Source of the DNA: a virus
Taxonomy: Duplodnaviria; Caudoviricetes
Length of the DNA: 49,753 nt
Reading direction: 5' to 3' (one strand)
IMG/VR virus record: IMGVR_UViG_3300020042_004316
Location: 1-49,753 of that record
Part shown: piece by piece, positions 13,060 to 49,753 of the stretch
Numbering within the stretch: the stretch's first letter is position 1
How the letters are laid out: the number at the start of each line of letters is the position of its first letter
Program-made: the position numbers and the translations under genes
Notes under the pieces: generated by a model
What the model was told of the DNA's origin: nothing
The model's input: the letters and a program-made list of their open reading frames with translations, nothing else
The model's database searches: none

Positions 13060-13773
13060 GTGGACCCCTTCTCTCTCCTCCTCGCTGCTCAAGCAGCCGT
13101 TGGCTTTATTAAAGCAGGATGCAACATGCTCCACGATGGACGCATGGAGTTGGAAGGAGCCAAGAAAACTGTCGAGGGAGTCATTAGCGATGTTAAGGCT
13201 ATCAAAGGCATATTTGACTGGTTCATTGGACTGTTTAAACGAGCAGAGCCAGCAGCCGAAGCAAAGCCTGTGGCAAAAGCGAAAGCCAAAGCCGCAGCAA
13301 AGAAGCAGTCTTACGAAGAACTTGAACTCAAACTCATCAGCGAGATTGGGGCAAACCTCGGCGTTCTCTTTGACACACAGCAACAGATTAACGACCATTA
13401 CATTGAGTTAGAAGAAACAAGTAAAACCAACTACGACCCAACGCAAAACACCAGTCAAAAGGCGATTGAGCGGGCATTGATTGAGTTGCAGATGGAGAAG
13501 GTGATGGAGCAGACCAGAGAGGCAATGGTCTATGCCCCGCCTGAGTTAAAAGATTTGTATAGCAGGTTTCTCAAGATGCACGCCAAAATAGAACAAGAAC
13601 AAGCGTGGGCAAGGTCTGAGATGATTCGCAGGGCAAGGTTGGCAAGGTGGAAAAAAGAGCAAGACGAGATTCGGGTCATTGAATTAACAAGTGGGGTGAT
13701 TGCCGTGGCATTCATATCTTTAATCTTTGGGTGGCTCATGTGGGAACTACGAAGCTGGTCTGGTGGATTTTGA
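13060..13773 (+). CDS. Coiled-coil protein with C-terminal transmembrane helix (lysis-module accessory)
   Basis: Helical heptads; GVIAVAFISLIFGWLMW hydrophobic segment; lies upstream of the holin. Confidence 0.65.
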   Translation: MDPFSLLLAAQAAVGFIKAGCNMLHDGRMELEGAKKTVEGVISDVKAIKGIFDWFIGLFKRAEPAAEAKPVAKAKAKAAAKKQSYEELELKLISEIGANLGVLFDTQQQINDHYIELEETSKTNYDPTQNTSQKAIERALIELQMEKVMEQTREAMVYAPPELKDLYSRFLKMHAKIEQEQAWARSEMIRRARLARWKKEQDEIRVIELTSGVIAVAFISLIFGWLMWELRSWSGGF

Positions 13774-13907
13774 TAGGGGTTGCGATATGTATTGTTGTGG
13801 GCGTTACCTCGATGGCATACGTGGAAACCCTATACATGCGGGCGCAGTTAAAACAAGAGATGAAAGAACTTCGTAAACTCAAACGCGAACTAAAGGAACA
13901 GAAATGA
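13740..13907 (+). CDS. Small membrane protein with coiled-coil tail (55 aa, not in ORF track)
   Basis: GTG start, MGTTKLVWWILIGVAICIVVGVTSMAYVETLYMRAQLKQEMKELRKLKRELKEQK*; ATGA overlap with the holin. Confidence 0.55.
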   Translation: MGTTKLVWWILIGVAICIVVGVTSMAYVETLYMRAQLKQEMKELRKLKRELKEQK

Positions 13908-14305
13908 TACCTATCGGCGCACTTTTAGATATTGGTGGAAAAATCTTAGATAAGGTGTTTCCTGACCCAGCACAGGCAGAGCAAGCAAAACTCAAACTGC
14001 TTGAGATGCAACAAAACGGTGAGTTGGCAAAACTCAATGCTGATGTGTCTGAGCAACATGAGTTAACTGAGCGGCTCAAAGCAGATATGGGTAGCGACTC
14101 TTGGCTGTCAAAGAACATCCGTCCCATGACCTTGGTGTTTATCCTAGTTACCTACACAACCTTTGCCATGATGAGCGCATGGGATGTTGAAGTCAATAAC
14201 AACTATGTGGAGTTGCTTGGTCAGTGGGGCATGTTAATTATGTCGTTTTACTTTGGCGGCAGAACGCTAGAGAAAATCATAGATATGCAGAAGGGTAAGA
14301 AATGA
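13904..14305 (+). CDS. 3TM-type holin
   Basis: KILDKVFPDP...DSWLSKNIRP...FYFGGRTLEK signature; hydrophobic helices; adjacent to the endolysin. Confidence 0.8.
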   Translation: MIPIGALLDIGGKILDKVFPDPAQAEQAKLKLLEMQQNGELAKLNADVSEQHELTERLKADMGSDSWLSKNIRPMTLVFILVTYTTFAMMSAWDVEVNNNYVELLGQWGMLIMSFYFGGRTLEKIIDMQKGKK

Positions 14306-14730
14306 ACCTAACAGAACACTTCACTCTTGACGAGTTAACTCATACTGACCATCGGGAACTAGAGAACACACCAAATGAACAAGAACTTGCAAATCTTCAA
14401 AGATTGGCTGAATTCCTTGAAACAGTCAAAGGCGTACTTGGCGGTAAACCAATCATGGTTAACTCTGCGTTCCGCTCTAAAATGGTTAATGACGCGGTAG
14501 GCTCAAAGGATACCTCTCAGCACCGAATAGGGTGTGCTGCCGATTTGAGAGTTCCGGGGGTTACCCCTGACGAAGTAGTTAAAGCCATTATTGCATCGGG
14601 CATAGGGTATGACCAAGTAATTAGAGAGTTTGACCGCTGGACGCATATCTCTATACCTAACACCCCTGCTGGCATTCCACGCAAGCAAGCATTGATAATT
14701 GACAAATCTGGTACTAGACCTTACGCTTAA
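14302..14730 (+). CDS. Endolysin, peptidase M15A family
   Basis: HFTLDEL, SAFRS..VN.AVG, SQH..G.AAD and W.HIS zinc-peptidase motifs. Confidence 0.88.
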   Translation: MNLTEHFTLDELTHTDHRELENTPNEQELANLQRLAEFLETVKGVLGGKPIMVNSAFRSKMVNDAVGSKDTSQHRIGCAADLRVPGVTPDEVVKAIIASGIGYDQVIREFDRWTHISIPNTPAGIPRKQALIIDKSGTRPYA

Positions 14731-14732
14731 TC

Positions 14733-17066
14733 ATGCCATTACAAAAACTACAATTCCGTCCCGGTGTTAACCGCGAAGGCACTACTCTCTCAAACGAGGG
14801 CGGCTATTTTGACGGCGACAAGATTCGTTTCCGTTCTGGCTACCCTGAGAAGATTGGTGGCTGGCAAGCTGATAGCGGGGCTTATTTCACTACGGTTCCT
14901 ACAGCTACGTTCTCATCAAGTGGCACATCGACAGCCGCTACACCTACTAGCGCATCGTTTTGGGGTATTGCTAAGGGGCTGTGGAACTGGATTAACTTAA
15001 CAGGCTACAACTTACTTGGCGTTGGTACTGACTTAAAGTACTACATACAGAACTCTTCGGGCGGTGCGTATAACGACGTTACCCCTATGCGTGTTACCAC
15101 TTCTGCTGGCGCAGTCACTTTTGCCGCAACATCTGGCTCTACCACTCTTGTAGTTACTAACGCTTCACATGGAGCGCAGGTGGCAGATTTTGTTTGTTTT
15201 ACTGGCGCTGTAACTCTTGGTGGTGTAATTACTGCAACCGTGCTAAATAGAGAGTATCAGGTTCAAACCGTTACAAGTAACAACACATACACAATTACTT
15301 CTTCTGTTGCCGCTAACGCTAGTGATATAGGTAATGGCGGCGGTTCTGTTATAGGCAACTATCAACTAACAACGGGCTACACCACATTTACGCTTGGTAC
15401 AGGTTGGGGCGCTGGTGGTTGGGGTGGCTCGGTTGGACCTAGTGCTACGACTGCGTTGACTGCAAGTATTAATAGTAGTTCTACTGCGGCTATTGCGGTT
15501 ACTTCTACAACAGGTTTTGCGGCGAGTGGATTAATCTACATTGGTTCTGAGGGTATCTCTTACCCATCAACAACGGGAACTACATTTGCCTCGCCTGTAA
15601 TCCGTGGATTTAACACTACAGCGGCGGCACACACTAATGGCGATGCTGTCTTTCAATACCCATCAACTGCAACTGGCTGGGGTTCTCCTGCTACCACTGG
15701 TATCGGCATTCAACTGCGCTTGTGGAGCCAATCTAACTACGGTGAAGATTTAATTATTAACCCACGCGGTGCGGCTATGTATTACTGGGCTAATAACGCA
15801 AGCCCTAATATTTATGACCGCTGTCAAATTATTAAAGCATCGACTAACGTAGTCACAAAATCAGGCACGTTTACACCAGACTCCACCTGTCCATCTGTTA
15901 CCAACTTTGTGTTGGTGTCTGATGCTTCGCGCTTTACTTTTGCTTTTGGCACAAACGACCCGACAGGTGTATACGCCACGGTAGCCCAAGACCCAATGCA
16001 GGTTCGCTGGTCAGACCAAAACACTGTGGCTGTATGGACACCTGCTATTACTAACCAAGCGGGCGGTATTCGTCTAAGCCACGGTTCTCAAATTATTACT
16101 GCCATTCAGACTAGGCAAGAGATTTTGGTGCTCACCGACTCAGCCATCTATTCGTTCCAGTATCTTGGTGCGCCGTATGTGTGGGGTAGCCAACTCTTAG
16201 CTGACAACATTTCTATCATCGGCCCCAACGCAATGATTGTTGTGAATAACGTCACCTACTGGATGGGAACGGACAAGTTCTATATGTACTCTGGTCGGGT
16301 AGAAACCCTGCCTTGCGCTTTGCGTCAGTACATCTATAACAACATTAACCTGACAGAAGCGTTCCAGTTTTTTGCTGGCACAAACGAGGGCTACAACGAG
16401 ATATGGTGGTTCTACTGTTCTATTACTGGGACTACATCTGCGGGTGAAAACGGAACGGGCACACCGGCTTCGCCTAATCGTTTAGTTGACCGCTACGTAA
16501 TTTACAACCATCTTGAGCGCACTTGGTACTACGGTACTTGGAACGGTACAACTGTTCGCCCGCGCACGGCTTGGTTAGATAGCCCATTAAGAGCAGAACC
16601 TATAGCGGGTATTGGGTATAACTCTGGCGGGGTGTACACCAACGGTGCAGTTGTATACCATGAGACTACCGTAGACAATAACGAGACTACAACCCCAGTT
16701 GCTATTGATGCCTATGTTCAATCGTCGGACTTTGATATAGGGGACGGTCATAATTTTGGTTTTGTTTGGAGGCTTATTCCCGACATCACTTTTGATGGCT
16801 CCAGTGCAGCAACGCCTTCCGTTAACTTTACGGTAAGACCGCGTGCTTTCCCCGGCTCAAACTACGGCAACTCAAACAGCCCAGACGTAGATAGCACTCA
16901 GTCCTATGTCAGCACAACAACCTACAACGTACAGCAATTTACTCAACAGGTCTATGTGCGGATACGGGGTAGACAGATGGCGTTTAAGATTTCTTCATCA
17001 GACCTTGGTACGCAGTGGCAGTTAGGCGTTCCGCGTATTGACGTCAGACCTGACGGTAGGAGATAA
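14733..17066 (+). CDS. Tail nozzle / tubular protein B-like (P22 gp10-like beta-propeller)
   Basis: MPL.KLQF.PG...RFR.G.PEKIGGW start, VRWSDQ, RTAW.D, R.RGRQ...DGRR end; position just before the ejection proteins. Confidence 0.65.
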   Translation: MPLQKLQFRPGVNREGTTLSNEGGYFDGDKIRFRSGYPEKIGGWQADSGAYFTTVPTATFSSSGTSTAATPTSASFWGIAKGLWNWINLTGYNLLGVGTDLKYYIQNSSGGAYNDVTPMRVTTSAGAVTFAATSGSTTLVVTNASHGAQVADFVCFTGAVTLGGVITATVLNREYQVQTVTSNNTYTITSSVAANASDIGNGGGSVIGNYQLTTGYTTFTLGTGWGAGGWGGSVGPSATTALTASINSSSTAAIAVTSTTGFAASGLIYIGSEGISYPSTTGTTFASPVIRGFNTTAAAHTNGDAVFQYPSTATGWGSPATTGIGIQLRLWSQSNYGEDLIINPRGAAMYYWANNASPNIYDRCQIIKASTNVVTKSGTFTPDSTCPSVTNFVLVSDASRFTFAFGTNDPTGVYATVAQDPMQVRWSDQNTVAVWTPAITNQAGGIRLSHGSQIITAIQTRQEILVLTDSAIYSFQYLGAPYVWGSQLLADNISIIGPNAMIVVNNVTYWMGTDKFYMYSGRVETLPCALRQYIYNNINLTEAFQFFAGTNEGYNEIWWFYCSITGTTSAGENGTGTPASPNRLVDRYVIYNHLERTWYYGTWNGTTVRPRTAWLDSPLRAEPIAGIGYNSGGVYTNGAVVYHETTVDNNETTTPVAIDAYVQSSDFDIGDGHNFGFVWRLIPDITFDGSSAATPSVNFTVRPRAFPGSNYGNSNSPDVDSTQSYVSTTTYNVQQFTQQVYVRIRGRQMAFKISSSDLGTQWQLGVPRIDVRPDGRR

Positions 17067-17068
17067 GC

Positions 17069-17410
17069 ATGGCAGCAAAAGGTGTAATAGCCCCAAGATT
17101 ACCAGCCGCGCCAGTTGAGTATGACCGCCTCTATATAGATACGATGCTAGGTATCTTGCGTCAGTACTTTGACCAACTAGACAACGCAGGCCCTGTATTG
17201 GTATCAACGCAGAGAAAGCCTGCACAGGGTTCTATTCCGGCAGAGGTAATCTCAGCTTTAAGTTGTGCTCAACCAAATCCAACTTCGCCTGCCGTATACG
17301 TTATTAGTCTTCCAACACAAGCTGATTTTGCTCTTTTGCGCTCTGGCGATATTTACTACGATACGTCTGGTGGGGCTGCATCTAGTTACCCATTAAGGAT
17401 TAAGGCGTGA
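17069..17410 (+). CDS. Hypothetical virion-associated protein
   Basis: APRLPAAPVEYD...LRQYFDQLDN; tightly packed in the operon. Confidence 0.65.
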   Translation: MAAKGVIAPRLPAAPVEYDRLYIDTMLGILRQYFDQLDNAGPVLVSTQRKPAQGSIPAEVISALSCAQPNPTSPAVYVISLPTQADFALLRSGDIYYDTSGGAASSYPLRIKA

Positions 17411-17441
17411 TAAACTCGTTTAAACAACTTACGAGGCAAAT

Positions 17442-18824
17442 ATGAGCCTACATAATGCTGCCAAACACCTAGCTGCCCACGGGCGTGGTGACGACAAAGT
17501 CCTTGTTCACATGACAAAAGGCGAAGTCAATAGTTTAAACAACATAGCAATGGCTCATGGTGGGCAATTAACTATTAATCCTCACACAGGACTGCCTGAA
17601 GCAGGCTTTCTGTCGAGTTTGCTTCCTATGATTGCTGGTGCAGGTCTAATGGCTGTTTCAGGCGGTGCTATAAACCCAATGACGGCTGGACTTTTGGTTG
17701 GTGGTTTAAGGACTGCGCAGTCTGGTAGTTTGAGCAAAGGCTTAATGGCTGGTCTTGGTGCTTATGGTGGCGCTGGTTTGTCTGGTGGACTAATGAGTTC
17801 CGGAGCATCTGCCATGAATACTCAAGCAGCAAATGCCGTACAAGCGGCAAATCCCGGATTAACTGCGGGTGAGATTGGCAGGGAAATGGGGACCGCAGGA
17901 TTTACTCAGCCAACAATTGCTGCAACGTCTAATCCCGCTTTAGCGTCCGGCATAGATAAATTTTCAGCCGGAGTTACAGGACTTGGAACAGAGGCTGGAC
18001 GGAGCGCCGCTTTAAGTTCAATGGGTGGTGGAATGGGTGCCGCAAAAATAGGTGCGGCGGCTGTCCTTCCTTCATTAATTGGAGAACCAAAAACCCCAGA
18101 AATGACACCTTCTGACAAAGATATGGGACAGCGCTATTCCTACACAGGGCAAGCGACTCAGCCAACTCCAGCGCCGGATGTAATGAGTTACGAAGATATG
18201 CTTACAAAGCAAGGAAACTTTGGACGTCAACAGAACTACTACCCAAATCCTAAGACTTACACAGCCATAGGACCAACCGAGGCTAAAGACTTATACCATT
18301 TTGCAAATGGTGGCCCAGTTGAGCAGATGTCTAACAACGCGGCTATGGGTTTAAACACCATGTACCCAATGGCTAATACGGCAACGTCATCTTTTGCTAC
18401 GCCTTATCAGGCTCCTCAGTCTACGAACATGTTGGCTAACATGGCTCCATCTGGCGGTGGCGCAGTGAATGCTATGTCTGGCGAACCTAGTATGCAAGGC
18501 ACCCGTATGGCTACAGGAGGCATCTCTGATGCCCACTACAACCTAGGTGGTTACTCTGATGGTGGTCGCCTTCTTCGCGGCCCCGGAGATGGTGTGTCTG
18601 ATGACATCCCTGCAATGATTGGAGAGAAACAGCCAGCCCGTCTAGCAGATGGAGAGTTTGTTGTTCCCGCCCGTATTGTTTCTGAGTTGGGCAACGGCTC
18701 AACTGAGGCAGGCGCACGTAAGCTCTATGCCATGATGGACAGAGTGCAGGCGGCACGTAAAAAGACAGTTGGTAAAAACAAGGTTGCACATAACAGCCGC
18801 GCAGAAAAGCATTTACCTGCATGA
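17442..18824 (+). CDS. Putative internal virion (ejection) protein
   Basis: GRGDD..LVH, TINP.TGLPE, Gly/Ala-rich amphipathic core, GPGDGVSDDIPA...RLADGEFVVPA C-terminus; several xA.GG motifs. Confidence 0.6.
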   Translation: MSLHNAAKHLAAHGRGDDKVLVHMTKGEVNSLNNIAMAHGGQLTINPHTGLPEAGFLSSLLPMIAGAGLMAVSGGAINPMTAGLLVGGLRTAQSGSLSKGLMAGLGAYGGAGLSGGLMSSGASAMNTQAANAVQAANPGLTAGEIGREMGTAGFTQPTIAATSNPALASGIDKFSAGVTGLGTEAGRSAALSSMGGGMGAAKIGAAAVLPSLIGEPKTPEMTPSDKDMGQRYSYTGQATQPTPAPDVMSYEDMLTKQGNFGRQQNYYPNPKTYTAIGPTEAKDLYHFANGGPVEQMSNNAAMGLNTMYPMANTATSSFATPYQAPQSTNMLANMAPSGGGAVNAMSGEPSMQGTRMATGGISDAHYNLGGYSDGGRLLRGPGDGVSDDIPAMIGEKQPARLADGEFVVPARIVSELGNGSTEAGARKLYAMMDRVQAARKKTVGKNKVAHNSRAEKHLPA

Positions 18825-19279
18825 AAAACAGTCACGGAAAACTGGAGTGGTTTGGGGGCAACCAAGATGCTTTAAACGTTTACCATGCGTTTGTTGATTT
18901 GGCACACATTTGGGATGACCTCGTAGACAAAGACAAGCCTGTTTCTGCAGATGAGATCAATCTCGCCTTCTTGACATGCTTGGTTTATCTGCCAGCTAAT
19001 CCGTTTTACCGCAGTATTCAAGAACAAATCTTACCCATGTGGCTTGTTGTGGTTTCTGCTTATGAAACTGCAAACTCTTTTGAGAAAAACAAAGACCCGC
19101 ATGGTATTGAGATTGCCCACGGTTTAAGATATTCTGTTGGAAATATCTTGGCGTATGCGGTTCATCTGTGTGTCGGTCCAGAGAAAGCAAAAGAATTCTT
19201 GCCAGACATGTGGAAAACAATTTTTCACGAGCGGTTTGATGATTACCGCAAGGAGCATTTAGATGTTGATTCCAAATAA
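18821..19279 (+). CDS. Class I isoprenoid synthase / prenyltransferase-like protein (DDxxD)
   Basis: Helical protein with HIWDDLVDKD motif; coupled to both neighbours. Confidence 0.5.
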   Translation: MKNSHGKLEWFGGNQDALNVYHAFVDLAHIWDDLVDKDKPVSADEINLAFLTCLVYLPANPFYRSIQEQILPMWLVVVSAYETANSFEKNKDPHGIEIAHGLRYSVGNILAYAVHLCVGPEKAKEFLPDMWKTIFHERFDDYRKEHLDVDSK

Positions 19280-21428
19280 ACACAACGGTTATTCTCGTGA
19301 CGGTATCCGTCTTTATCACATGGATCAGGGAAGTCCAGCGCCAGCGGCAGAACAAAAGGCCACTACAGAACTGCCTGATTGGGCAAAGCCGTATGCCAAA
19401 GACATACTGGCTAAGGGTCAGGCGTTAACTGACGTTAACCAGAACCCATATCAGATTTACAACCAAGACCGCATTGCAGGGTTTTCCCCAATGCAACAAC
19501 AGGCTATGCAAAACGCACAAGGCATGTCTGTTGCTCCTCAAGTTGGTGCCGGTACTGCAAGCGCAATAGGCGCTGGTCTTGGTGGGTTAGACGTTGCCAA
19601 TCAGGCGACCACTGGAGGATTCCAGAGCCAAGTAGGCGGGTACATGAATCCGTACCTACAGATGTCTTTGGCTCCTCAGTTGGCAGAGGCTAACCGCGCA
19701 TATGATGCTGGTGCAACCAAGCAACAAAGTGCCGCTACACAGGCTGGTGCGTTTGGAGGCTCTCGTGAAGCCATCATGGCGGCTGAAAATGAGCGTAACC
19801 GCAACATGGGGTTACAAAATATTATTGGTCAGGGCTATAACCAAGCCTTTGGTCAGGCCCAAAACCAATACAACCAAAACCTTAGCAATCAACTCCAAGG
19901 GTACGGTATGCTGGGAAACACTGCCAATACTCTTGGGCAGTTAGGGCAAAACCAATACACCCAAAACATGGGCATCAACGCACTGCAGTCGCAGTACGGT
20001 GGTCAACAACAAGCCCAGATGCAAAGAGGTTTAGATACTGCGTATCAGGACTTCCAGAACCAACAGAACTACCCATACAAACAGTTGGGTTTCATGTCTG
20101 ACATGATCCGTGGTTTACCACTGGGTCAGCAGTCTACATCTCAGATGTATCAGTCTCCCGGAAGTGTCGCTGGTCAGATCGCCGGTCTGGGCATGGGTGC
20201 TTATGGCATGAGTAGAGCCTTTGCCGCCGAGGGTGGCTTAATGGATTCTTACGCTGGTGGCGGAGAGATTGACAGCGCTGGCAACATTGCAGGCATCCTG
20301 TCTAAACTTAGTGACCAACAACTCCAGCAAGCAAAGCAAGCCGCACTAGGCCGCCGTGACGTGGAGCAGGCAACCCTAATTGATCAAGAGATAGCTGACA
20401 GGGTGGCTATGCGCACTGGTGTAAACGCATCTCCTATAAACGCAGATGCTATGGCTTCGGATGAAAACCCAGATAGCATCACAGGATACGCCGCTGGTGG
20501 CTCTGCTGTTCAAGCATTAATGAACAAACCAAGAGACCCAGAAACTCCTGTGGATCAGCAGGCTCTTGACATACTTGACAAATTGTCTGCCCGTAGCAAA
20601 CCTGCAATGGATGCTTTAAACGCACAAGTTGAAAGTATTAAAGGACGTCCTGAAGAGATCAAGGAGCGTGGTTTGGGTGAGGCAATTGCAAAATACGGTT
20701 TTGATTTTGCAGCAAAATCAGCTAAACCCGGTGCCAAATTCTTTGGTGCCGCCTCTGAAGCATCTCCTGTCCTTGCTGAATCCATGATGAACACTAAGAA
20801 GTCTGTTCAAGCGGCGCAAGACAATTACATCAACCTCAAGATGAATCAGACCAAGTATCAGATTGCTCTTGACAAGGGTGATATGCAAACTGCCGCAACC
20901 TTGGCTGGTCAGTTGCGTCAAGAGAAACAAAGCCAGAAAGTGCTGGAGTTGACTGCCGCCCACTACGTTGATGACTACGGAATCAAGAAGGAGCAAGTTG
21001 CCGCAACATTACGTGCGCAGGGCGCTCCGATCATGCAGGTTTATAACGAACTTAAATCTGATCCTGCCAACAAAAACAAGAGCCGTGAAGAACTCATGGG
21101 CTTGGCAAGCAGAGCCATGTACGGTGCGCAATATGCCGGCACAGAACAGCGCGGACTTTCTAATTACCTTAAAGAAAAGAATGAGATTGAGAAAGATTTC
21201 AAGACCTTACCGCTCCTACCGCCTAACAGCCCAATGCGTAAGCAAATGGAAGGTGCACGCCAACAAAGACTTGATGATTTAAACAAGATGTATCCGGGGG
21301 CATCAGGTCAAGAGGGCGCTCCATCTGGCAGCATTTCGTCTGCGGTGCCACAAGGTGGTCAGAGGACGGCGGCCTCATCTATGCAACAAAGTGATGTTGA
21401 TTTAGTCAATAAATATTACAGGCAATAA
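19263..21428 (+). CDS. Putative DNA ejection protein
   Basis: Q/G/A-rich; YMNPY, AGAFGGSR and GGQQQ...DFQNQQNYPY patterns; three xA.GG motifs. Confidence 0.6.
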   Translation: MLIPNKHNGYSRDGIRLYHMDQGSPAPAAEQKATTELPDWAKPYAKDILAKGQALTDVNQNPYQIYNQDRIAGFSPMQQQAMQNAQGMSVAPQVGAGTASAIGAGLGGLDVANQATTGGFQSQVGGYMNPYLQMSLAPQLAEANRAYDAGATKQQSAATQAGAFGGSREAIMAAENERNRNMGLQNIIGQGYNQAFGQAQNQYNQNLSNQLQGYGMLGNTANTLGQLGQNQYTQNMGINALQSQYGGQQQAQMQRGLDTAYQDFQNQQNYPYKQLGFMSDMIRGLPLGQQSTSQMYQSPGSVAGQIAGLGMGAYGMSRAFAAEGGLMDSYAGGGEIDSAGNIAGILSKLSDQQLQQAKQAALGRRDVEQATLIDQEIADRVAMRTGVNASPINADAMASDENPDSITGYAAGGSAVQALMNKPRDPETPVDQQALDILDKLSARSKPAMDALNAQVESIKGRPEEIKERGLGEAIAKYGFDFAAKSAKPGAKFFGAASEASPVLAESMMNTKKSVQAAQDNYINLKMNQTKYQIALDKGDMQTAATLAGQLRQEKQSQKVLELTAAHYVDDYGIKKEQVAATLRAQGAPIMQVYNELKSDPANKNKSREELMGLASRAMYGAQYAGTEQRGLSNYLKEKNEIEKDFKTLPLLPPNSPMRKQMEGARQQRLDDLNKMYPGASGQEGAPSGSISSAVPQGGQRTAASSMQQSDVDLVNKYYRQ

Positions 21429-24400
21429 ATGGAACTAAATCAAGTTCTTGGCGCACTGCGCAATGCTGATGCGGCAGGCGATGTTGAAGCCGCAAAAAGA
21501 TTGGCTGTAATAGCGAAATCTTTGACTGGGCAAATAGGCCCAGAGGCCATCATGTCCACGGAGGATTTACAGAATGCTAAGTCCGCACCTACCTCTATTA
21601 GCGATATTGCCCGCTCATTTGGTTCTGGCGTTGTTGGTGCAGGCAAGTCCTTGGTTGATGTATTTGGTGCTGGCTCTGGAGTCTCGCAGTATCTTGGAGA
21701 AGTTTCGCAAGGTCTTCAACAGGGCCTAACTCCTGAGCGCCAAGCAGAGATGGCTCGCCGTGCCGAGTTGTCTAAACGTGCTGAGAAAGAAGGAACCTTT
21801 GCCGAGATTAAGAGCGGCTTGGCTGGTATTCTTGAAGCCCCTCTACAGAGTATTGCGCAAGGTGTTGGCTCCTCCCTCCCGACTATCGCTGCTGGCTTAG
21901 TTGCCTTACCCGCCTCCGCCCCCGCCGCTCTAGCCGTGGGTGTTCAACGTGCTAGTCAGATTCTGATCTCTGCCGCACAGGGAACTGGTGAAGTTAAGGG
22001 CGACATCCATGAGTCCATTAAGCAAGCATACAAAGAAAAAAACCCCAACATGCCGCCCGAAGAGGTGGAAAGATTGGCAACCGAAGCACAGGCTTACACA
22101 CTAAAGAACGCACCCCTATTGATTGGCGGTGCAGCATTTGGCGCACTAGACGCCGTTACAGGATTTGAGAAGTCAGCATCCAGAGCCTTGAGAGGCGCGT
22201 TGACTCCAGAGAAGACATTCACCAAAGAAGGTTTGGATGCCGCTGTTGCTAACCTACCTAAGAAGGCTGTGGAAGCACCAACCTACTTGGGACAAGCGGC
22301 TAAGGTTGGTATTGGTGAGTCTATCCCTGAGGGCTTACAAGGTGGCTACGGTCAGTTAGCCCAGAACGTGGCAATGACTCAGGCTGGATTTGAGACGCCA
22401 ACATTCCAAGGCGTGGCAGGTGCGGCGGCTAGAGATGCTCTAGTTGGTGCGTTGACCGGAACGGCAATGTCTCCTTTGGGCTATTCTGTTGCAAATGCTG
22501 ACTTCCAAGCGGACAAGTTCTTGCGGGGCGTTCAGTCCCAACAACAGTTTGACAAAGAACGCGAAGAGTTCACTAAGACTCAAGAGCAGACCAAAGAGAA
22601 CCTTGGTGTAAACAAGACATTGATGTTGGGCTATGAGCCTCCAGCAGAGGAAGAGAAGTTCACCAACCCGCTTGCAACCATCAAGAGAAGTGAGTTACCC
22701 CCTGAGAAGAGTGGCGACATAATTCTTAAAGAGTTGAAGTTTGTGGACAGTTACCGCAAACAAAACGGTCTTCCTCCCATTAAGTCGTATTCTATTGAAG
22801 ACATCAAAGATGCGATGCCCGGTGTTGATCCGGAAGGAGAACAGGGTCGCATTGATGCCATCTTAGCCTCTAAGTACGGCTATAAGCCTGTGGACGACAA
22901 CACAGGTAAGCCAGTGAACTACACCGTTGATGACGTTATCTCTGCCGCAGAGGACGAGAAGAACGTTGCTACAGGCACCAAAGGGTTTAACGACTTCCTA
23001 ACACGCACTACAGGTTCTAGTGATTTAAACACTATGACCCAGCCTCAGTTGTTTGCCGCGTATTCTGCAATTAAGCAGATGCCTGAGTCCAAAGAGAAGG
23101 TGATCCTTCCTGAGGGTACAGGTGCGTCTAGATTTACCGACAAGCAATACAAGAAGGCTGTCAGTTGGTTTGGTCAGACATTTGAAGGTGTTGACAACAA
23201 GCCTTTGTCACGGGACACCATCATTGGAGATATTCAAGAAGCTACAGGGCTAGGGCAGAAGCAAGATGCTGAGGCTCTATTAGATACAGCAGTCAGAAAC
23301 GGTGACTTGGCTGAGACCGAAGAAAGAGTTTTCAGAACCTACGACGATAACGATAAACTTGTTGCAACGTACCGGGATAAGGAAAAGGCCGCCGCAGCGG
23401 CTAAAAAACAAGGTTTAAACGTTAGAGAAGAGACGCTTAGACAGATGATGCCGCCACCAGCGGCAGAGCCAGCCAAACGTACCACCCTCCCACAGGGTTA
23501 CGCCATGAGCAAGGAGACCATCAAAGAAGGTGAAGTCCCCGTTGGTTTTGACATCTTCCCAGAAGGTAAAGGTAAGTCTCTATTTACCGTCCCCACATCA
23601 GAGGCGGTACAGGAAAAGATTGACCAACTCATCCCTGCCCGTAAGAAGGAAGCCGCCCGTTACTTGGGTTACATGGACAGAGACAAGGCAACCTTGCAAA
23701 AGGCAAGAGACGGTTTGGTCTCTATGGAAGCCCGTGGTGAAGTTGGTTCACAGGCTTATGAGCTTGCCAAGACTAAGTTAGCCAAGCAAGAGAGAGTTCT
23801 GGGCAACCGCATCCTCAAGAGCATGGAGCGTATTACGGATTACGAGCAACCGCTCATATCACGCCCATCTGAGAAGAAGAAGCAAATTACCCGTGAGAAG
23901 ATCACGGTAACTAAACAAGGTAAGTTCTTAGGCAGTTTCCCTGATAACGTCAAGGCACAGGAGGCTATCCTTGTCCAGATGTCGGATCAGGAACTGGCTG
24001 ACACAGCGTCTGACGGTCGTCTTGGTGCGATTGCTGACCGTGCCGCCAAAGAGATTGAGCGCCGTAAGAGTCCCGCTGGCATCATGGTCAGACGCACTCC
24101 TAAAGCCAAGGAAGAGTTGCCACCTCTATCTCCAGAACTCACAGCAGTTGCTGATGAGATTTCCAAGAAGTTAGTCCCCATCCTTCAGCGCATGGGGCTA
24201 GGAGATGTTGGGTTAAAGATTGTTCAGTCTATTAAGAACGGTGGAGAAGGCTCTTACACCAAAAACCTGATTCAATTGGCTATTGATGCAGAGAAACCGT
24301 TAGAGGTTATGCATCATGAGTCGTTGCATGCGTTGAAGGACTTAGGGTTCTTTACACCACAACAATGGTCTACCCTAGAGAACCAAGCACAGAAGTCTTG

Positions 24401-32900: not shown

Positions 32901-32983
32901 TTCCCAGCATAAAAATGGATACAGCGACTATTACCACTACTACCCCGCCAAGGCACATCAACAAGACTGCCCATGCAATTGTT

Positions 32984-36352: not shown

Positions 36353-36361
36353 ATCTGCTCC

Positions 36362-38148: not shown

Positions 38149-38169
38149 TACTCCTTTAAATGAATGTGG

Positions 38170-38200
38170 ATTATATTATGGATGATATCACTATTGTCAA
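38170..38200 (-). promoter_or_regulatory. Putative leftward sigma70 promoter for the recombination operon
   Basis: TTGACA (38200-38195), then TATAAT (38175-38170) at 19-bp spacing or TAATAT at 16 bp; ~20 nt upstream of the exonuclease RBS/start. Confidence 0.55.
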
Positions 38201-38600: not shown

Positions 38601-38802
38601 ACAACTGCGCTCCTGAAAGCCCAGCGGTTGTAGTTTAAACCATTTTCCTATTGCTGTGTTGTCGCTGCCTGTAGTTTTTCTGGCAAGCTCACCAGATGAG
38701 CTATACCCCGTTTAAACGCTACGGCCTCCCGCTTTTCCCGCTCGCTGCAATCCGGGACGACTGGAAAATCCGGGAAAAGCCTGTTTAAACGCATAAAAAT
38801 AG

Positions 38803-38942
38803 CCGCCGCGTAGCAATCGTAGCCCGCCGCGTAGCAATCGTAGCAAAACCGGCAATAAGTACTTATTCATGTCCTTCATGTCCTGCATGTCCTAAACAGG
38901 CCGTTTAAACGCCTAAGATGTCTAAGATGACTAAGATGTCTA
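38803..38942. repeat. Short tandem repeat cluster (candidate replication origin)
   Basis: CCGCCGCGTAGCAATCGTAGC x2 (38803, 38824); palindrome AATAAGTACTTATT (38854-38867); CATGTCCT x3 (38868, 38877, 38886); CTAAGATG x3 (38913, 38922, 38931). Confidence 0.8.
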
Positions 38943-38994
38943 TAGAGTTCACCCCCTCGATGGAGACACTACTGAAAATATATTTTGGTACCGC

Positions 38995-39025
38995 TTGACA
39001 CGGATTGAAATAATGTGCTTATAAT
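38995..39025 (+). promoter_or_regulatory. Putative rightward sigma70 promoter
   Basis: TTGACA 38995-39000, 19-bp spacer, TATAAT 39020-39025, immediately before a structured RNA. Confidence 0.55.
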
Positions 39026-39030
39026 AAAAA

Positions 39031-39135
39031 CTGTTGCCGTAGGAAGCGACCGTTATTGAAGCCGTTTACTCATGCCCTTGCCCTTGGTTTAATCCGTAGG
39101 GTTCCTACCGAGGGCAGTAGTAAACGGCTTTTTTA
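39031..39135 (+). ncRNA. Structured RNA / leader with loop-loop pseudoknot and terminator-like end
   Basis: Hairpin GTTGC/GCGAC with loop CGTAGGAA; long stem AAGCCGTTTACT/AGTAAACGGCTT plus TGCCCT/AGGGCA; internal TTCCTAC complementary to GTAGGAA; T-run after the stem. Confidence 0.6.
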
Positions 39136-39417
39136 TTGTCCCTACACAACCGTACTCCGCACGTTAGTAAGACTTCATCCTGAGGGCGCGGAAGAAAAGG
39201 GTACACGGTACGTCTATGACTAGGGGGCAGTTCCCGAACAATCCGTGCGACTGGTCTTATCATCAAGTCGAGGGGCATACGGTTAAAACCCGTAGCATGA
39301 TGATGCCGTTAGGCGGTGAAACACCTTCTCCTTCTTGCTCCACGCCGTGGGGTAGGGGGGTCTTTGGGTGAAAAACAATGAAAAGCCCCGCAAAGGGGCG
39401 TTTAACGAAGGAGTGAC

Positions 39418-39888
39418 ATGGACGTTCATAACAAAGAGAATTTCAAGAGGTTCGTTGAGCATTTAGACGCAAGCCATAACGGTGTATGGAACGTGGCTAG
39501 TTGGCTTAACAGTAAGGGTTATTCAGTGACTATCCCGCCCACCACGGTGGCAAAATCCTACGAAGATAGGATGAACCATGTAGACGGTGGCGATTTATTT
39601 ATCCAACAACGCATTGAGGTTAAGACCCTAGGGATTAACTTTACATGTAGAGAAGATTGGAAATTTGGTGACAAGTTCATAGTCTGCGCAAAGCATTCCT
39701 ATGACAACGCAACACCAAAGCCATACGGCTACATCATCCAAAGTGCAGACATGAAACACATTGCTGTTGTTCACTCATCGACATTTAAACAATGGAACGT
39801 TGAGAAGCGGAATGATTCCCGCTACGTTGAATATGCGCAAGAGTTTTATCTGTGCCCAATCGATCTCGTTAAGTTTTTTAAAGTCTAA
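39418..39888 (+). CDS. PD-(D/E)xK-like hypothetical protein
   Basis: DGGDL....RIEVK motif; AAGGAG RBS. Confidence 0.6.
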   Translation: MDVHNKENFKRFVEHLDASHNGVWNVASWLNSKGYSVTIPPTTVAKSYEDRMNHVDGGDLFIQQRIEVKTLGINFTCREDWKFGDKFIVCAKHSYDNATPKPYGYIIQSADMKHIAVVHSSTFKQWNVEKRNDSRYVEYAQEFYLCPIDLVKFFKV

Positions 39889-39903
39889 AGGGGGAGAACT
39901 ATC

Positions 39904-40146
39904 ATGCCAAGAGATTACCGTAAAGAATATGACAACTACCAAGGAAAACCGGAGCAACTAAAGAATCGGGCTGAGCGAAACAAGGCACGATCCGACCTAG
40001 TGAAGAAAGGTGTAAACGTTGCCGGCAAAGATGTAGCGCACGTCAAGGCGCTGTCCAAAGGAGGAAGCAACAAGACCGGCGTGCGTGTTGAGCCGGCCTC
40101 CAAGAACCGATCATTTAAACGCAAGTCTGACGGGAGCATGAAATGA
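39904..40146 (+). CDS. Small HNH-like protein
   Basis: RDY.KEY...R..RN.AR...GKDVAH.KALSKGGSN...NRS pattern. Confidence 0.6.
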   Translation: MPRDYRKEYDNYQGKPEQLKNRAERNKARSDLVKKGVNVAGKDVAHVKALSKGGSNKTGVRVEPASKNRSFKRKSDGSMK

Positions 40147-40397
40147 CCCGACAAGACATAGCAGATATGTACGGTGATGAACTGCTCTTCATCGACCCTG
40201 AGAAGTTTGACAAATGCATCATAGGTGTTGCCACTCGTTGTGGCATACCGTCCTCCGTTGTGTATGACAAGGATGAACTCATCAAGGTTTACATGGACGA
40301 AGGCATGACAATGGAAGACGCACTTGAATTCATTTCATACAACGTTGAAGGTGCGTATGTTGGAGAAACGACCCCGCTAATCATGGAGCGGATATGA
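40143..40397 (+). CDS. Conserved small phage protein
   Basis: FD.CIIG...VVYD...GMT.EDA.EF..YN..GAYVGE.TP; ATGA coupling on both sides. Confidence 0.7.
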   Translation: MTRQDIADMYGDELLFIDPEKFDKCIIGVATRCGIPSSVVYDKDELIKVYMDEGMTMEDALEFISYNVEGAYVGETTPLIMERI

Positions 40398-42073
40398 ACT
40401 TAGATCATGTAGATTTCAACGAACACGCACGCATAGCCTGTCCCGAATGCTCGGACGATAGGAAGAAGTCAACATCAAAAGACATGACCCTGACCCGTAA
40501 GCCTAACGGGGCAATCATGTATCACTGCCACCATTGCCTCACTAGCGGGCTTGTCAGTCCAACAACACAACCTAGGGAGAATAAATTGTCCGCTGTACCC
40601 AACGTAGCAATCACAAATAATAAATTGCAGGAACATCACTATGCGTGGTTGTTTAAACGAGGGATATCCCAGCAGACCGCAGACAAAATGAAGTTGTTCG
40701 CTGCCGATAAGTTTTTCAGCAAACTGGGCAAGACATCTGAAGCGATTGGTTTTCCGTACTACAGGAATGGCGCACTCGTAGCCGTGAAGTACCGCTCGTT
40801 CCCTGAGAAAGACTTTACACAGGACTCAGGCGGGGCACATGATTTCTTTGGCATAGACCTCGTTGAGAAGGGTAAGCCCATCATCATTGTTGAGGGTGAG
40901 ATAGACGCACTAACAGTTATGGAATGTGGAATAGAGAATGTGGTGTCCGTGCCTAGCGGTGCTCCCATCAAAGTTGCTGACGGTAAGGTTCTACCAAGCG
41001 AAGACAAGAAGTTTGCTTATGTATGGAACGCAAGAGAGGTCATTGAGTCAGCACCATACATCGTATTAGCCACCGACCAAGACTCAGCGGGTCAGGCACT
41101 AGCCGAAGAGTTAGCCCGAAGGATTGGTAAAGACAAGTGCCGTATTGCGAAGTTCAGCAAGAAGGATTTAAATGAGGTTTTACTTGATGACCCCACTCGG
41201 CATAGTGTCAGGGATATCATAGACAAGGCAACCCCGTACCCCATAGCGGGACTCTCGGATGCTGGCATTTACTTTGACCGTTTAAACGACCTCTTCAACA
41301 AGGGTACGGGAAAGGGATTCTCAACAGGTTATACCTCCGTAGATAGCGTTTACACGGTAGCACCAAGCCAACTCACAGTCGTCACGGGGTATCCGTCGTC
41401 AGGCAAATCAAACTTCATCGATCAGATCATGGTCAACCTAGCCAAAGCATCGGATTGGAAGTTCGCTGTGTGCTCGTTTGAGAATCAACCGGAGATTCAT
41501 ATCTCTAGGCTCATGGAGATTTACACCAAGAAAAGATTCTTTGACGGCAAAGATCGTATGTCAGAGTGGGAGAAACAGGATGCGTTTAAATGGGTACAGG
41601 AGCACTTCTTATTCATCGACACCAACGGTGAAGAACCTTCAACACTGGACTCAATCCTAGACCGTGCACGTATTGCAGTTAAACGTATGGGGGTGCGTGG
41701 GTTGGTCATCGATCCCTACAACTACATAGAGTTAGACAAGAGCAACTCCACAGAGACCGAAGCCATTAGTCAAATGCTGACCAAGGTGCAGAAGTTTGTA
41801 AAAACCAACGACGTGCATTGTTGGTTCATTGCTCACCCATCTAAGATTAATCGATCAGGGGTTGAACAGCCCCGACCCGATGGCATGTCAATCAGTGGAT
41901 CGATGGCATGGTGGGCAAAGACCGACTGCGGTATCACCGTGCACCGTCAGGATCAGTGCGTTGAAATCGCTGTGTGGAAATGCCGGCACCGGTGGATTGG
42001 TACGCAAGGGGAAACGACCCTTCTCTACAACAAGACATCGGGTACGTACTCAGAGAACCTAGACCAGTTCTAA
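40394..42073 (+). CDS. Bifunctional DNA primase-helicase (Zn finger + Toprim + SF4 helicase; T7 gp4/Twinkle-like)
   Basis: CPEC...CHHC; IIVEGEIDAL and D.D Toprim motifs; Walker A GYPSSGKS; VIDPYN; AHP. Confidence 0.92.
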   Translation: MNLDHVDFNEHARIACPECSDDRKKSTSKDMTLTRKPNGAIMYHCHHCLTSGLVSPTTQPRENKLSAVPNVAITNNKLQEHHYAWLFKRGISQQTADKMKLFAADKFFSKLGKTSEAIGFPYYRNGALVAVKYRSFPEKDFTQDSGGAHDFFGIDLVEKGKPIIIVEGEIDALTVMECGIENVVSVPSGAPIKVADGKVLPSEDKKFAYVWNAREVIESAPYIVLATDQDSAGQALAEELARRIGKDKCRIAKFSKKDLNEVLLDDPTRHSVRDIIDKATPYPIAGLSDAGIYFDRLNDLFNKGTGKGFSTGYTSVDSVYTVAPSQLTVVTGYPSSGKSNFIDQIMVNLAKASDWKFAVCSFENQPEIHISRLMEIYTKKRFFDGKDRMSEWEKQDAFKWVQEHFLFIDTNGEEPSTLDSILDRARIAVKRMGVRGLVIDPYNYIELDKSNSTETEAISQMLTKVQKFVKTNDVHCWFIAHPSKINRSGVEQPRPDGMSISGSMAWWAKTDCGITVHRQDQCVEIAVWKCRHRWIGTQGETTLLYNKTSGTYSENLDQF

Positions 42074-42095
42074 AAAAAGGGGGCATCAAGCCCCC
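42072..42095 (-). terminator. Rho-independent terminator at the convergence of early genes and primase-helicase
   Basis: GGGGGC/GCCCCC stem with A7 on the left, giving a U-tail for the leftward transcript. Confidence 0.65.
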
Positions 42096-42363
42096 GTAAA
42101 TTTATTTACCCAAACATAAAATTTCTTATGTACCTGCTGTGCGTTTAAACAGGGGTGGGAGGGGGTGGGAAGGGGGGTGGGGGGTTGGGTGATTCGTAGT
42201 ATGCCCCCCTTCATACCTCTCAAAAGTCCCCTTGTCAATGAGTAAACCCAAGGGGGTTAGAGGTCAGTCACATCACCCACGCTAGACCTCCAACTCATAC
42301 CTGCTGTGCGTTTAAACGGTACTGCGGGCCGCTGCTCGATGCTGCTGGTGCGGCCTACTATGT

Positions 42364-42600
42364 TTAAACACTCAATCTGGCACGGTACACGGCTCGGTGC
42401 AATGAATCAAAGCGACCACAAAGTCGGGGCAACCGACCCTTGGTCATCTTGTAAACATCCCATGTGCCGTTGTAGGAAATGTACTTCTCACCCACGCTGA
42501 TAAACCGCTCGTCATTCTGTAGATTGACAAGGTTGTCGTATTTGTATGCGGTCTTTAAAAACATGGGGTCTCTGTTGGTGATGGTCTTAATCGGATGCAT
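42364..42600 (-). CDS. Small early hypothetical protein
   Basis: ORF overlapping its upstream neighbour; last gene of the leftward array. Confidence 0.55.
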   Translation of the reverse strand: MHPIKTITNRDPMFLKTAYKYDNLVNLQNDERFISVGEKYISYNGTWDVYKMTKGRLPRLCGRFDSLHRAVYRARLSV

Positions 42601-46402: not shown

Positions 46403-46415
46403 TTTCTTACTCCGA

Positions 46416-47897: not shown

Positions 47898-47911
47898 TTG
47901 TATTACTCCAA

Positions 47912-48511
47912 TTAAACTAAGGTGAGCACGTCTTGATCGACAGGGCATGAGGGGAGACCGTAGGATGCCCATTTGGAAGACAGGCGCACGGTATAGCCAC
48001 AGGATGGGCACTCTGCTTTCAGCATGCGTGTGCCTTGTTTTTTCTTACCGTTGGCAAATGCCAACTCAGCATGTGGGTACGCACCCAGTGAGTCGATGAT
48101 CGCACCGTAGGCTTGGTCAAAACCGTTAGCCCCTTGCGTATAGCCCCATGCGTTTTTACGTGTGGGGTTGACAGGCTCTAACAGCATGGCTGATGCGATC
48201 TTTTGGAAGTTGACACCGTGGTTGAATCCGCCCTTGGCGGTATGGCATAACTCATGCACCAGTACTTCAAACACTTGTTTTGGCTTGGCGATGACAGGGC
48301 TAATTAATATTTCATAGTGCTTGTCGGCACTAGCAGTGTCGATCCAGCATTCGCCAATAGCGTTGTTACGCTTGGCATGTAGGGGAAAGCCACAAGTAAG
48401 GCGCACCTTGTCGGGAAGTATTGACCCTGCGATTTCAAATGCGGGGCGCAGTTCATTGAATGCAACGGTGAGCCACTCTTCACGTGTGGCGTGGACGGTA
48501 GGTAAGGTCAT
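47912..48511 (-). CDS. SprT-like zinc metalloprotease with C-terminal Zn ribbon
   Basis: IGECW, VLVHELCH...H...F, CPSCGY...PSCP. Confidence 0.8.
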   Translation of the reverse strand: MTLPTVHATREEWLTVAFNELRPAFEIAGSILPDKVRLTCGFPLHAKRNNAIGECWIDTASADKHYEILISPVIAKPKQVFEVLVHELCHTAKGGFNHGVNFQKIASAMLLEPVNPTRKNAWGYTQGANGFDQAYGAIIDSLGAYPHAELAFANGKKKQGTRMLKAECPSCGYTVRLSSKWASYGLPSCPVDQDVLTLV

Positions 48512-48529
48512 GTGATGATCTCCAAATAA

Positions 48530-48930
48530 GTAGCAAAATTACTACTGCAATGCCCACAGCATGGGCATCACGGTGTTAACTTATGGTGCGATGCAATCCT
48601 CTTCATTCAATTCACCGACTTCACAAATTACATCAGCCCATTTATCCAGTGGCTTGTCTGTCAGGGCATCGATCAACTGATAACCCTCAGCGACACCGCC
48701 ACGCTCAAACAACCAGTGAACGTATTGATAGACGCTCATTGCTCTAGTGCAAGCATTCCAGTTGTAGGCACTGGGGTTTTTTACGAAAGACTTCTGTACT
48801 GTCTGCAATTCAAACTTAGCCCATTTGGTAACTGCAAGTGGTGTTATTAGTTGTTCCATTCTCATACTCCAATTACGTGGCGAAATTACCACTCCAATGC
48901 CCCCGCAAGGGGCATCAGGGTATTAACTTA
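48530..48930 (-). repeat. Two homologous intergenic double-hairpin elements (48530-48583 and 48877-48930)
   Basis: Minus strand TAAGTTAA.ACC.TGATGCCC-loop-GGGCATTG.AGT[AG]GTAATTT[TC]GC[TC]AC in both copies, each just before an RBS. Confidence 0.75.
48581..48865 (-). CDS. Early hypothetical protein
   Basis: GGAG RBS before ATG 48865; bracketed by the two hairpin elements. Confidence 0.6.
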   Translation of the reverse strand: MRMEQLITPLAVTKWAKFELQTVQKSFVKNPSAYNWNACTRAMSVYQYVHWLFERGGVAEGYQLIDALTDKPLDKWADVICEVGELNEEDCIAP

Positions 48931-49108
48931 CGGTGACGTTTTTCTCTAGGATGGTGTACTCAAGAGACTGATAGGGATCGTCCCTATCGTCACCATTGAT
49001 GCAGTTGAGGAACGCTAGTTCCGCTTCACCTTTGTAGAGATGTACGCTGACTACCTTTTCAATGATGCCTTTGTTGAACGCCACTACTGCATACTTTGTA
49101 ATCTTCAT
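48923..49108 (-). CDS. First early hypothetical protein
   Basis: MKITKYAVV start after AAGGA; non-coding region upstream. Confidence 0.55.
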   Translation of the reverse strand: MKITKYAVVAFNKGIIEKVVSVHLYKGEAELAFLNCINGDDRDDPYQSLEYTILEKNVTVS

Positions 49109-49436
49109 TTTGCTAATCCTTTTTCTGTCTGGCGATGTTGCCAATGCATATTGGATCACATTAATATTGTTATGTCAAACACTGGGATATTTACCTGAGT
49201 AAACCGTAGGGTTATTAGATTGGGTGATCAGTTAGTGGGCACTCATGTACTTATATATAGGTGCTGACAGACAACCTGTGGATATATACAGGCTGTGATT
49301 AACATCAGTAATACATTTGAGGGACAGACCGATTTAAAGGGGCTAGAAGAGGGGTCAAGTGGTTTAGGCGGGGTAGGTATGGGTTGGGAAAATTAGGGGG
49401 CTTCCTGACAATGTGTAAGCATTTCGTTTAACAAAG

Positions 49437-49498
49437 TTATCCACACTGATGTGGGTAAGTCTGTGGACAGTTCAAGTTATTCACATGCCTGTGGACAA
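49437..49498. promoter_or_regulatory. Cluster of DnaA-box-like 9-mers
   Basis: TTATCCACA (49437), TGTGGGTAA (49450), TGTGGACAG (49462), TTATTCACA (49477), TGTGGACAA (49490); also TGTGGATAT at 49277. Confidence 0.7.
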
Positions 49499-49753
49499 GT
49501 GATATAGTGCTGGACATACGAACAGTGCTGTACGTTTAAACAGCATGTGTTTATTTACATAAGACATTTGGGTGAAAGGGTAAGTACTATGGAGAAAATG
49601 ACCAAGGGTGACTACATGCGAGCACTGGAACAGGCGAATGAACCTGATCAAATTGATAACAGTGAAAACCCTGTTCTGAGCGAAGCAGAACGGTTGGCGC
49701 ATATGGCAGACGCACCTAAACGTAGAGTGGATGGAGAAGTGATAACCAGTGAA

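Follow-up and report, generated by a model that had tools for sequence, protein, structure and literature searches.

The virus record IMGVR_UViG_3300020042_004316 of IMG/VR, analysed here over its whole length of 49,753 nt and called the window throughout, raises the question of why one eight-letter palindrome, GTTTAAAC, recurs so often in a phage genome and what reads it. The comparisons described below indicate that GTTTAAAC is under selection and that, in many kinds of mobile DNA, it is linked to a single gene. That gene encodes a SprT-like protein, designated P0001 in the window, which is likely to bind GTTTAAAC and, with it, the tolerated variant GTGTAAAC.

Enrichment and conservation of the word

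Exact counting recovers all 37 copies of GTTTAAAC listed in a first-pass annotation of this DNA, each at its listed position and with no further copy in the window, and the expected counts are 0.9, 1.2, 1.3, and 2.4 under Markov models of order 0, 1, 2, and 3, respectively; at order 4, where the word contributes to its own null, the expectation is 5.7. GTTTAAAC is the most over-represented 8-mer in the window, its one-mismatch variants occurring 0 to 5 times each on the plus strand, and the palindromes GGCC, AGCT, CGCG, and GATC are under-represented. A pyrimidine is preferred before the word and a purine after it. As had been noted, the sites use more than one reading frame and lie in genes of either orientation, with 14 in the frame x-L-N and 14 in the frame x-F-K-x. 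After synonymous codon shuffling only 2.2 ± 1.4 genic copies are expected (maximum 7 in 1000 shuffles) compared with 28 observed, and the enrichment thus persists under both the Markov and the codon-shuffled nulls. The word is actually present in 28 of the 35 peptide contexts in the window that would permit it. The dense non-coding clusters are also confirmed, with four sites in 38633–38910 and three in 42143–42369, and the regional bias holds: positions 1–13232 contain no copy, three coding opportunities in the genes tested there being unused, and a like gradient is found across 12 genomes.

The window is a fragment of a group of podoviruses of ∼64 kb, whose complete relatives measure 60–65 kb, and it is itself podovirus-like, with genes for adaptor, tail, lysis, ejection, Sak, exonuclease, RusA, primase/helicase, vWA, MoxR, and SprT-like proteins. 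No named close relative was found, a megablast search with the giant gene being empty and the best primase match being 33% identical; the named phages MinM2 and DSL-LC04 contain no GTTTAAAC site, and no SprT match was found in them. In IMG/VR, 79 loci carry a primase 67–96% identical to that of the window, and these relatives are referred to below as the clade. The only hint of the host is a fragment of the clade, its TerL 85% identical, that was binned with a Burkholderiales metagenome-assembled genome, although binning is weak evidence. GTTTAAAC occurs at 0.9 per kb or more in 63 of the 79 loci, and most of the remaining 16 are dominated by a variant, GTGTAAAC, ATTTAAAC/T, or ATGTAAAC. Ten of the 12 records that are at least 90% complete contain 39–54 copies, the other two containing 5 and 2. 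In a density profile averaged over 12 genomes, from which seven variant-type or low-count genomes were excluded, GTTTAAAC reaches a maximum of 5.5 per 2.5 kb at the primase, remains at 2–4 per 2.5 kb from ∼17 kb before the primase to 12 kb beyond it, and drops to 0.2–0.3 in the tail-fibre region. The variant GTGTAAAC/GTTTACAC is ∼7- to 10-fold above codon shuffling in the core genes of the clade.

An origin of the word in composition, in codon or peptide bias, or in neutral site generation might be suggested by the regional bias, which partly tracks the variable tail-fibre module, and by the sites of the giant gene, which are often lineage-specific, 26 of 44 positions occurring only once. Such an origin is nevertheless extremely improbable given the codon-shuffling result, and core late genes are site-poor as well (major capsid protein 2, nozzle 3, compared with primase 18). 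Furthermore, same-peptide comparisons among diverged relatives, which are ordered and non-independent pairs, retain the site in 662 of 705 cases against 86.5 expected, and the peptide contexts that permit the word are themselves enriched in the core genes of the window (21 against 9). Because sites are kept at unchanged peptides and peptide contexts are enriched, selection acts on the DNA word itself, and GTTTAAAC is kept by purifying selection. The primase site at 41280, for example, is retained in 13 of 18 aligned genomes, and at one vWA position a variant lineage shows K replaced by T alongside its variant word. Of the two origins offered in the first-pass annotation, positive selection or a site-generating process, selection on the word therefore stands and neutral generation is contradicted; in the relatives the retained word co-occurs with the SprT-like gene.

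The gene that accompanies the word

Sixteen named carriers of the SprT-like gene, 13 phages and 3 plasmids, were chosen for diversity among 164 phage and 74 plasmid matches. GTTTAAAC or GTGTAAAC is enriched in 12 of these 16 unrelated elements, whose hosts belong to Actinomycetota and Pseudomonadota, with observed and expected counts of 20 and 0.02 in R26L, 20 and 0.08 in Yang, 40 and 0.04 in Intolerant, and 18 and 0.4 in a Magnetospira plasmid; ep3 is weakly enriched (4 against 0.9). All four carriers without the word (Dismas, Armstrong, LK3, and Epa5) have divergent C-terminal tails. Actinophages favour GTGTAAAC and proteobacterial elements GTTTAAAC, indicating that the host background shapes the variant. 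Among 73 bacterial-genome loci picked by a peptide pattern, several of them copies of one element, 71 hold a site, the two others being shorter than 2 kb, and the total of 268 sites compares with 10.5 expected, control words numbering 22 against 26.8.

The association was also examined in the reverse direction with viral loci chosen by two close sites, comprising 78 loci of at least 3 kb from which 3 duplicates were removed. Of the 36 motif-dense loci 26 contain the gene, compared with 2 of 39 that are sparse and none of 80 controls. Outside the clade it is present in 15 of 20 dense loci, eight of which apparently represent one phage family. Three of the ten dense loci without a match lie on contigs longer than 40 kb that carry the gene elsewhere, and the other seven are fragments of 13.5 kb or less. 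Of 23 sparse, control, or outgroup records, none carries the gene. G010 lacks the gene, but its record terminates inside the primase. Among phages resembling Arthrobacter Cluster AZ, four without the gene contain 1, 0, 0, and 0 sites, compared with 33 in Honk, 17 in Emotion, and 17 in Maureen, which carry it. The word or a one-letter variant accompanies the gene in unrelated phages, prophages, and plasmids, which points to it as the probable landing site of the protein and supports, among the functions proposed in the first-pass annotation, that of a protein-binding site, with the SprT-like protein as the predicted partner.

The same data bear on the possibility that a host protein or modifying enzyme reads the word as a HIP1-like element, a methylation target, or a nick site, with the SprT-like gene a bystander. 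HIP1 of cyanobacteria is likewise a selected and highly over-represented octamer palindrome found within genes, as described in the accessible parts of two sources (PMC5861425, PMC4390886), and the division between GTGTAAAC in actinophages and GTTTAAAC in proteobacterial elements could be read in this way. HIP1, however, fills host chromosomes and is linked to methyltransferases, whereas GTTTAAAC is restricted to mobile elements, where it goes with a single gene; the word is not HIP1 because it is element-specific. It is seldom found outside the element in the host chromosomes examined: GTKTAAAC is not abundant genome-wide in eight gene-carrying bacterial genomes, and in two of these a single ∼40-kb stretch around the gene accounts for 22 of 28 and 14 of 23 sites, respectively. 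Moreover, the elements that have the word come from several phyla, it is missing from close relatives that lack the gene, and sites upstream of the gene are far commoner than expected by chance. Methyltransferases of the two families searched, PF01555 and PF02086, were not found in five complete relatives. Reading by a host factor is accordingly very improbable, and neither the HIP1-like host word nor the modification target of the first-pass annotation is upheld.

Other phage proteins fare poorly as partners. The helix-turn-helix (HTH) protein at 35984–36352 and the ribbon-helix-helix (RHH) protein at 35325–35624, proposed as partners in the first-pass annotation, occur in none of 12 motif-rich elements outside the clade, compared with 12 of 12 for the SprT-like gene; these elements were chosen as SprT carriers, so that only the zero counts are informative. 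The open reading frame (ORF) at 35984 has no family match whatsoever. MoxR, vWA, HNH, primase, and the giant protein, considered as partners in the same way, each occur in 0 of the 12.

The Pfam SprT-like match of P0001 (E = 4e-5) falls narrowly short of the cut-off. Its predicted model (predicted local distance difference test score 94) consists of a zincin domain joined by a flexible basic linker to a small zinc ribbon. The predicted N-terminal fold is close to Wss1, SPRTN, and abylysin, with a middling Z of about 7: Foldseek places SPRTN/Wss1 (PDB 6MDW/6MDX, 5XBN) at ranks 1–2 with E of 0.006–0.014, and comparison of this domain with SPRTN/Wss1 by VIA gives Z of 7.1–7.3 and root mean square deviations of 3.4–4.0 across 100–103 residues. 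Fold searches with the ribbon return generic zinc ribbons alone (best Z 3.6), and comparison with the zinc-ribbon families of Pfam gives weak, scattered matches, with an Atlas lead of 0.77 to PF17283. A sequence search of the PDB with the family profile gave nothing significant and did not return ArdC; longer fusions of the ribbon were not found, which is weak evidence. P0001 resembles SPRTN (Spartan) and Wss1 in predicted N-terminal fold, in the HExxH motif and third His, and in possessing a small C-terminal zinc domain; it differs in that the fold matches are middling, the gene goes with a single DNA word, and many copies lack the catalytic motif or the entire domain. On the predicted structure P0001 is a SprT/SPRTN-fold relative of the same family as the SprT-like protease of Cluster AZ. 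The accessible part of the report on that protease names no binding site (bioRxiv 2025.05.26.655371); the candidate site described here occurs in 17–20 copies in Yang, Maureen, and Emotion and extends beyond AZ phages to other phyla and element types.

Within P0001 the zinc ribbon is the likely reader of the word, because loss of HExxH spares the sites, ribbon-only genes exist, and carriers with divergent ribbons have no sites. HExxH is gone in 9 of 18 clade sequences without loss of sites, and site density is 1.30 per kb in 27 loci with the motif and 1.36 in 22 loci without it. Ribbon-only genes of ∼50 aa occur in other phages, and their loci hold 1.8–2.8 sites per kb. The invariant residues of the family all lie within the ribbon. 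From these comparisons we consider direct binding of GTTTAAAC by the ribbon highly probable. A residue code for the motif variants is not established: Q-P-T-R pairs with ATTTAAAC in two lineages, but L053, with Q-G-T-R, has the same variant.

A second phage family presents a series from protease-dead to ribbon-only genes (L261:5782-5961, L265:2211-2393, and L276:2892-3188; also L281, L264, L221, and L248) with 1.7–3 sites per kb. An Alphaproteobacteria multi-copy mobilisable element encoding a relaxase and a coupling protein carries the gene and two sites, one of them inside the gene (L478:5200-15400; L474, L476, L479, L482, L483, L485, L488, and L490). Other repeated words were seen among the named carriers, namely an AT-rich ∼12-mer present six times in Armstrong (W15), TAGATAGA in LK3 (W09), and GAGTTATA in R26L and Pan1 (W05, W14); these are possibly promoter motifs or shifted sites.

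What the protein might do at its sites

The reading preferred here, to which we assign an overall probability of roughly 0.5, is that the scattered sites are dispersed, stoperator-like operators that damp transcription of the element's DNA. The SprT-like protein would repress the promoter of its own gene together with some early ones and would block elongation where it is bound, every 1–5 kb, inside transcription units, so that the element would be held dormant or the shut-off of early genes would be timed. More speculatively, the protease domain might serve as an off-switch through self-cleavage, dispensable in lineages that have lost it. A site directly upstream of a gene is the usual mark of autoregulation, and among the named records 6 of 11 have one at most 100 bp upstream of the SprT-like gene (0.37 expected), as do 18 of 56 records overall (5.5 expected), often overlapping −35/−10 hexamers as judged by eye. 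Short tandem gaps between genes, as delimited by a crude, purpose-made gene caller on which all the gap counts given here rest, are enriched in sites both in the clade (98 against 28) and outside it (76 against 17), some sites lying between the ribosome-binding site and the start codon.

Repression is also suggested by the AZ phages, which, according to the accessible part of the source, lysogenise although no repressor is known in them and in which the SprT-like gene adjoins the integrase (bioRxiv 2025.05.26.655371). In the same account Liebe, frameshifted in the SprT-like gene, gives clear plaques and Maureen turbid ones. In Alexa and Persinger the gene lies two genes away from an integrase, and searches of these two and of ep3 for an HTH_3 or S24 repressor were negative. 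In the literature searched, mostly non-subscription, none of the matches listed describes the word in phages or reports a target site for the protein family.

Several observations weigh against dispersed repression. In this clade the start of the SprT-like gene and the nearest site are mostly 0.5–1.3 kb apart (G011 excepted; 1022 bp in the window), a distance that gives no sign of autoregulation. About two thirds of clade sites (280 of 415) are inside genes, and among the gaps convergent ones are enriched (27 against 5.2) whereas promoter-rich divergent ones are not (7 against 7.2). The asymmetric variant lacks a strict orientation, the two orientations being 21:19 in Intolerant, 6:14 in Yang, and 38:28 in the clade. 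Liebe and Maureen differ at three additional positions, according to the accessible part of the same source (bioRxiv 2025.05.26.655371). The Q-x-T-R motif of the ribbon is changed in the Magnetospira plasmid, a Caulobacter plasmid, and G018, yet the word or a variant is present. Plasmids and the relaxase-bearing mobilisable element also hold the gene and the word, and many of the loci compared are related, so that the counts overstate their independence. Finally, neither a tyrosine nor a large serine integrase was found in five complete relatives, and a dormant state in the integrase-less clade would need a non-integrated form.

Alternatively, the same protein and site might act as a position-independent self-mark, holding an SPRTN/Wss1-like protein along the DNA of the element so that it would clear away or repel proteins of the host, for which restriction or SMC-type defence complexes, silencers, and protein-DNA crosslinks are candidates. 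Spacing more even than random in R26L (coefficient of variation, CV, 0.36), Yang (0.44), and Intolerant (0.54), each with p = 0.0002, and in Pan1 (p = 0.004) is consistent with such a mark, as are the location of sites at cheap positions, convergent gaps included, and their number, two in a mobilisable element of ∼9 kb and up to 54 in phages. So also are the predicted fold near SPRTN/Wss1 and the retention of HExxH in 64 of 69 bacterial-genome loci. A precedent is the plasmid anti-restriction protein ArdC, which is SPRTN-like and, in the accessible part of the source, functions without protease activity (PMC7213743). Contig ends just past terS, moreover, would put both the gene and the greatest density of sites at the likely first-entering end if packaging is headful. 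Self-marking, however, accounts neither for the clear plaques reported for Liebe nor for the missing repressors; 22 of 49 GTTTAAAC-type clade loci have lost the protease motif with no fall in density, and spacing of GTTTAAAC in the clade is not even overall (CV 1.1–1.5). Even spacing as a general rule fails for whole clade genomes, Zeta1847, pUT1, Persinger, ep3, and G033. A self-mark of this kind, although the chief rival of dispersed repression, is somewhat unlikely. Its fuller form, in which elements would write a host-rare octamer every 1–5 kb, even at amino-acid cost, and a 45-residue ribbon would park an SPRTN-like protease on their own DNA only, is a tentative proposal of slightly greater weight.

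A third possibility is that the protein bridges, compacts, or segregates a non-integrated element in the manner of a dispersed centromere or nucleoid protein. In pUT1 and the Caulobacter plasmid the gene has parA, an RHH gene, and rep as neighbours; in the clade no integrase was detected and an RHH gene weakly resembles a plasmid copy-control protein (below cut-off), and site density is greatest near replication genes. Nevertheless, the gene and word are found in integrating phages and in a relaxase-bearing element as well, pUT1 and the Caulobacter plasmid already possess ParA/RHH, and the sites are dispersed rather than clustered as at a centromere, making this role improbable.

Dispersed repression can be compared with the stoperators of Cluster A mycobacteriophages such as L5 and TipsytheTRex, which, in the accessible part of the source, are more than 20 repressor sites across the genome in promoters and short intergenic spaces (PMC9283540). 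The system here is partly alike: one element protein is paired with at least 20 dispersed sites, some at promoters and many in short intergenic spaces, but about two thirds of clade sites are genic; a link to lysogeny is suggested for AZ phages. The stoperator, however, is a 13-bp asymmetric site oriented with transcription and is bound by a repressor that combines an N-terminal HTH with a Stoperator domain, as far as that source extends (PMC9283540), whereas the site here is an 8-bp palindrome or near-palindrome, its asymmetric variant occurring in both orientations, and the protein a predicted zincin with a zinc ribbon; the sites here are also mostly genic, and the gene occurs on plasmids and in integrase-less phages. 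Membership in the stoperator class thus fails on site symmetry, orientation, and protein family, and it is by analogy that the system probably works like stoperators. The KorA and KorB proteins of IncP plasmids are likewise element-encoded regulators whose operators are dispersed over the replicon, some far from promoters, but they are HTH/ParB proteins with longer operators, unlike the zincin and ribbon here. ArdC of plasmid R388 is alike in being a mobile-element SPRTN-like protease with a DNA-binding domain and dispensable protease activity; it binds single-stranded DNA by its N-terminal domain, the reverse of the domain order in P0001, and dispersed sites are not mentioned in the accessible part of the source (PMC7213743).

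Wider features and significance

The features of the window are collected in Table 1.

Table 1. Coordinates of the word, of its predicted reader, and of the regions discussed in the text
Feature	Position	Strand	Remarks
SprT-like protein P0001, 199 aa, predicted reader	47912..48511	-	in 49/49 relative loci long enough
N-terminal zincin domain	48062..48511	-	H86-E87-x-x-H90 and H98
C-terminal zinc ribbon, predicted DNA-reading module	47915..48058	-	Q159, T161, R162, C168, C189 invariant (alignments A2/A3)
Predicted binding sites, 37 exact GTTTAAAC	13233..49541	.	28 genic, 9 intergenic
Tolerated variant GTGTAAAC/GTTTACAC, 9 copies	11472..41355	.	11472, 15869, 20419, 22606, 27637, 32610, 32735, 40010, 41348
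Adaptor and tail-fibre region without GTTTAAAC	1..13232	+	density lowest here in relatives too
Non-coding gap upstream of primase operon	38601..39055	.	4 sites and short tandem repeats
Convergent gap after primase gene	42074..42369	.	3 sites, two within a repeated 20-mer
Giant polyvalent protein gene (ART-PolyVal x5, GP88, LPD38), 3595 aa	21429..32216	+	10 sites
Primase/helicase	40394..42073	+	2 sites; coincides with density peak

The gap upstream of the primase operon is a possible origin or control region; at 38790–38950, amid its four clustered sites, lie short tandem repeats (a 20-mer twice and 7- to 9-mers three times), also a possible origin. The gap after the primase gene lies between convergent genes, so that no promoter is needed there. 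A promoter scan of 32000–49753 revealed no excess over shuffled sequence (20 against 25.8). Sites over 23000–32300 are spaced more regularly than random (CV 0.46, p = 0.009), and the giant polyvalent protein (21429–32216) differs widely in length between relatives. The SprT-like, MoxR, and vWA genes form a single early operon across the clade (44765–48511 in the window). At 3710–10894 an ORF of 2394 aa has lower guanine-cytosine (GC) content, no Pfam or PHROG match, and homologues in 5 of 20 compared genomes, and is probably a swapped tail-fibre or adhesin module. No DNA polymerase match was found among the window and G002 proteins scanned.

Near the terS end, at 49250–49480, are TATCCACA words, which we take to be DnaA-box-like and which are also present in relatives L029, L035, L036, and L072; such words are over-represented in several relatives. 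Contig ends cluster after the terS start (49590–49753 in the window), 21 of 67 lying at 400–950 bp, two of these set by the flank limit, which suggests a pac site or physical end. Three 'cyanophage' records (OQ594354.1, OL906435.1, and PP438419.1) bear different host names, are all 65014 long, and have identical match scores; as MinM2 has a GC content of 69%, 'cyanophage' host labels may be doubtful.

These findings assign a candidate DNA target to a common, uncharacterised protein family of mobile elements and reveal selection on a DNA word strong enough to alter protein sequence; the word also delimits the extent of the elements within bacterial genomes. If the ribbon does read the word, a module of ∼45 residues recognising 8 bp would be an unusually small sequence-specific binder. 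Self-marking, if true, would imply either a sequence-addressed protease that strips host proteins or a class of self-cleaving repressors unrelated to CI/LexA. Dispersed repression, if true, would supply the immunity repressor that is missing in Arthrobacter Cluster AZ, and perhaps also in other phages that have an integrase but no CI-like gene.

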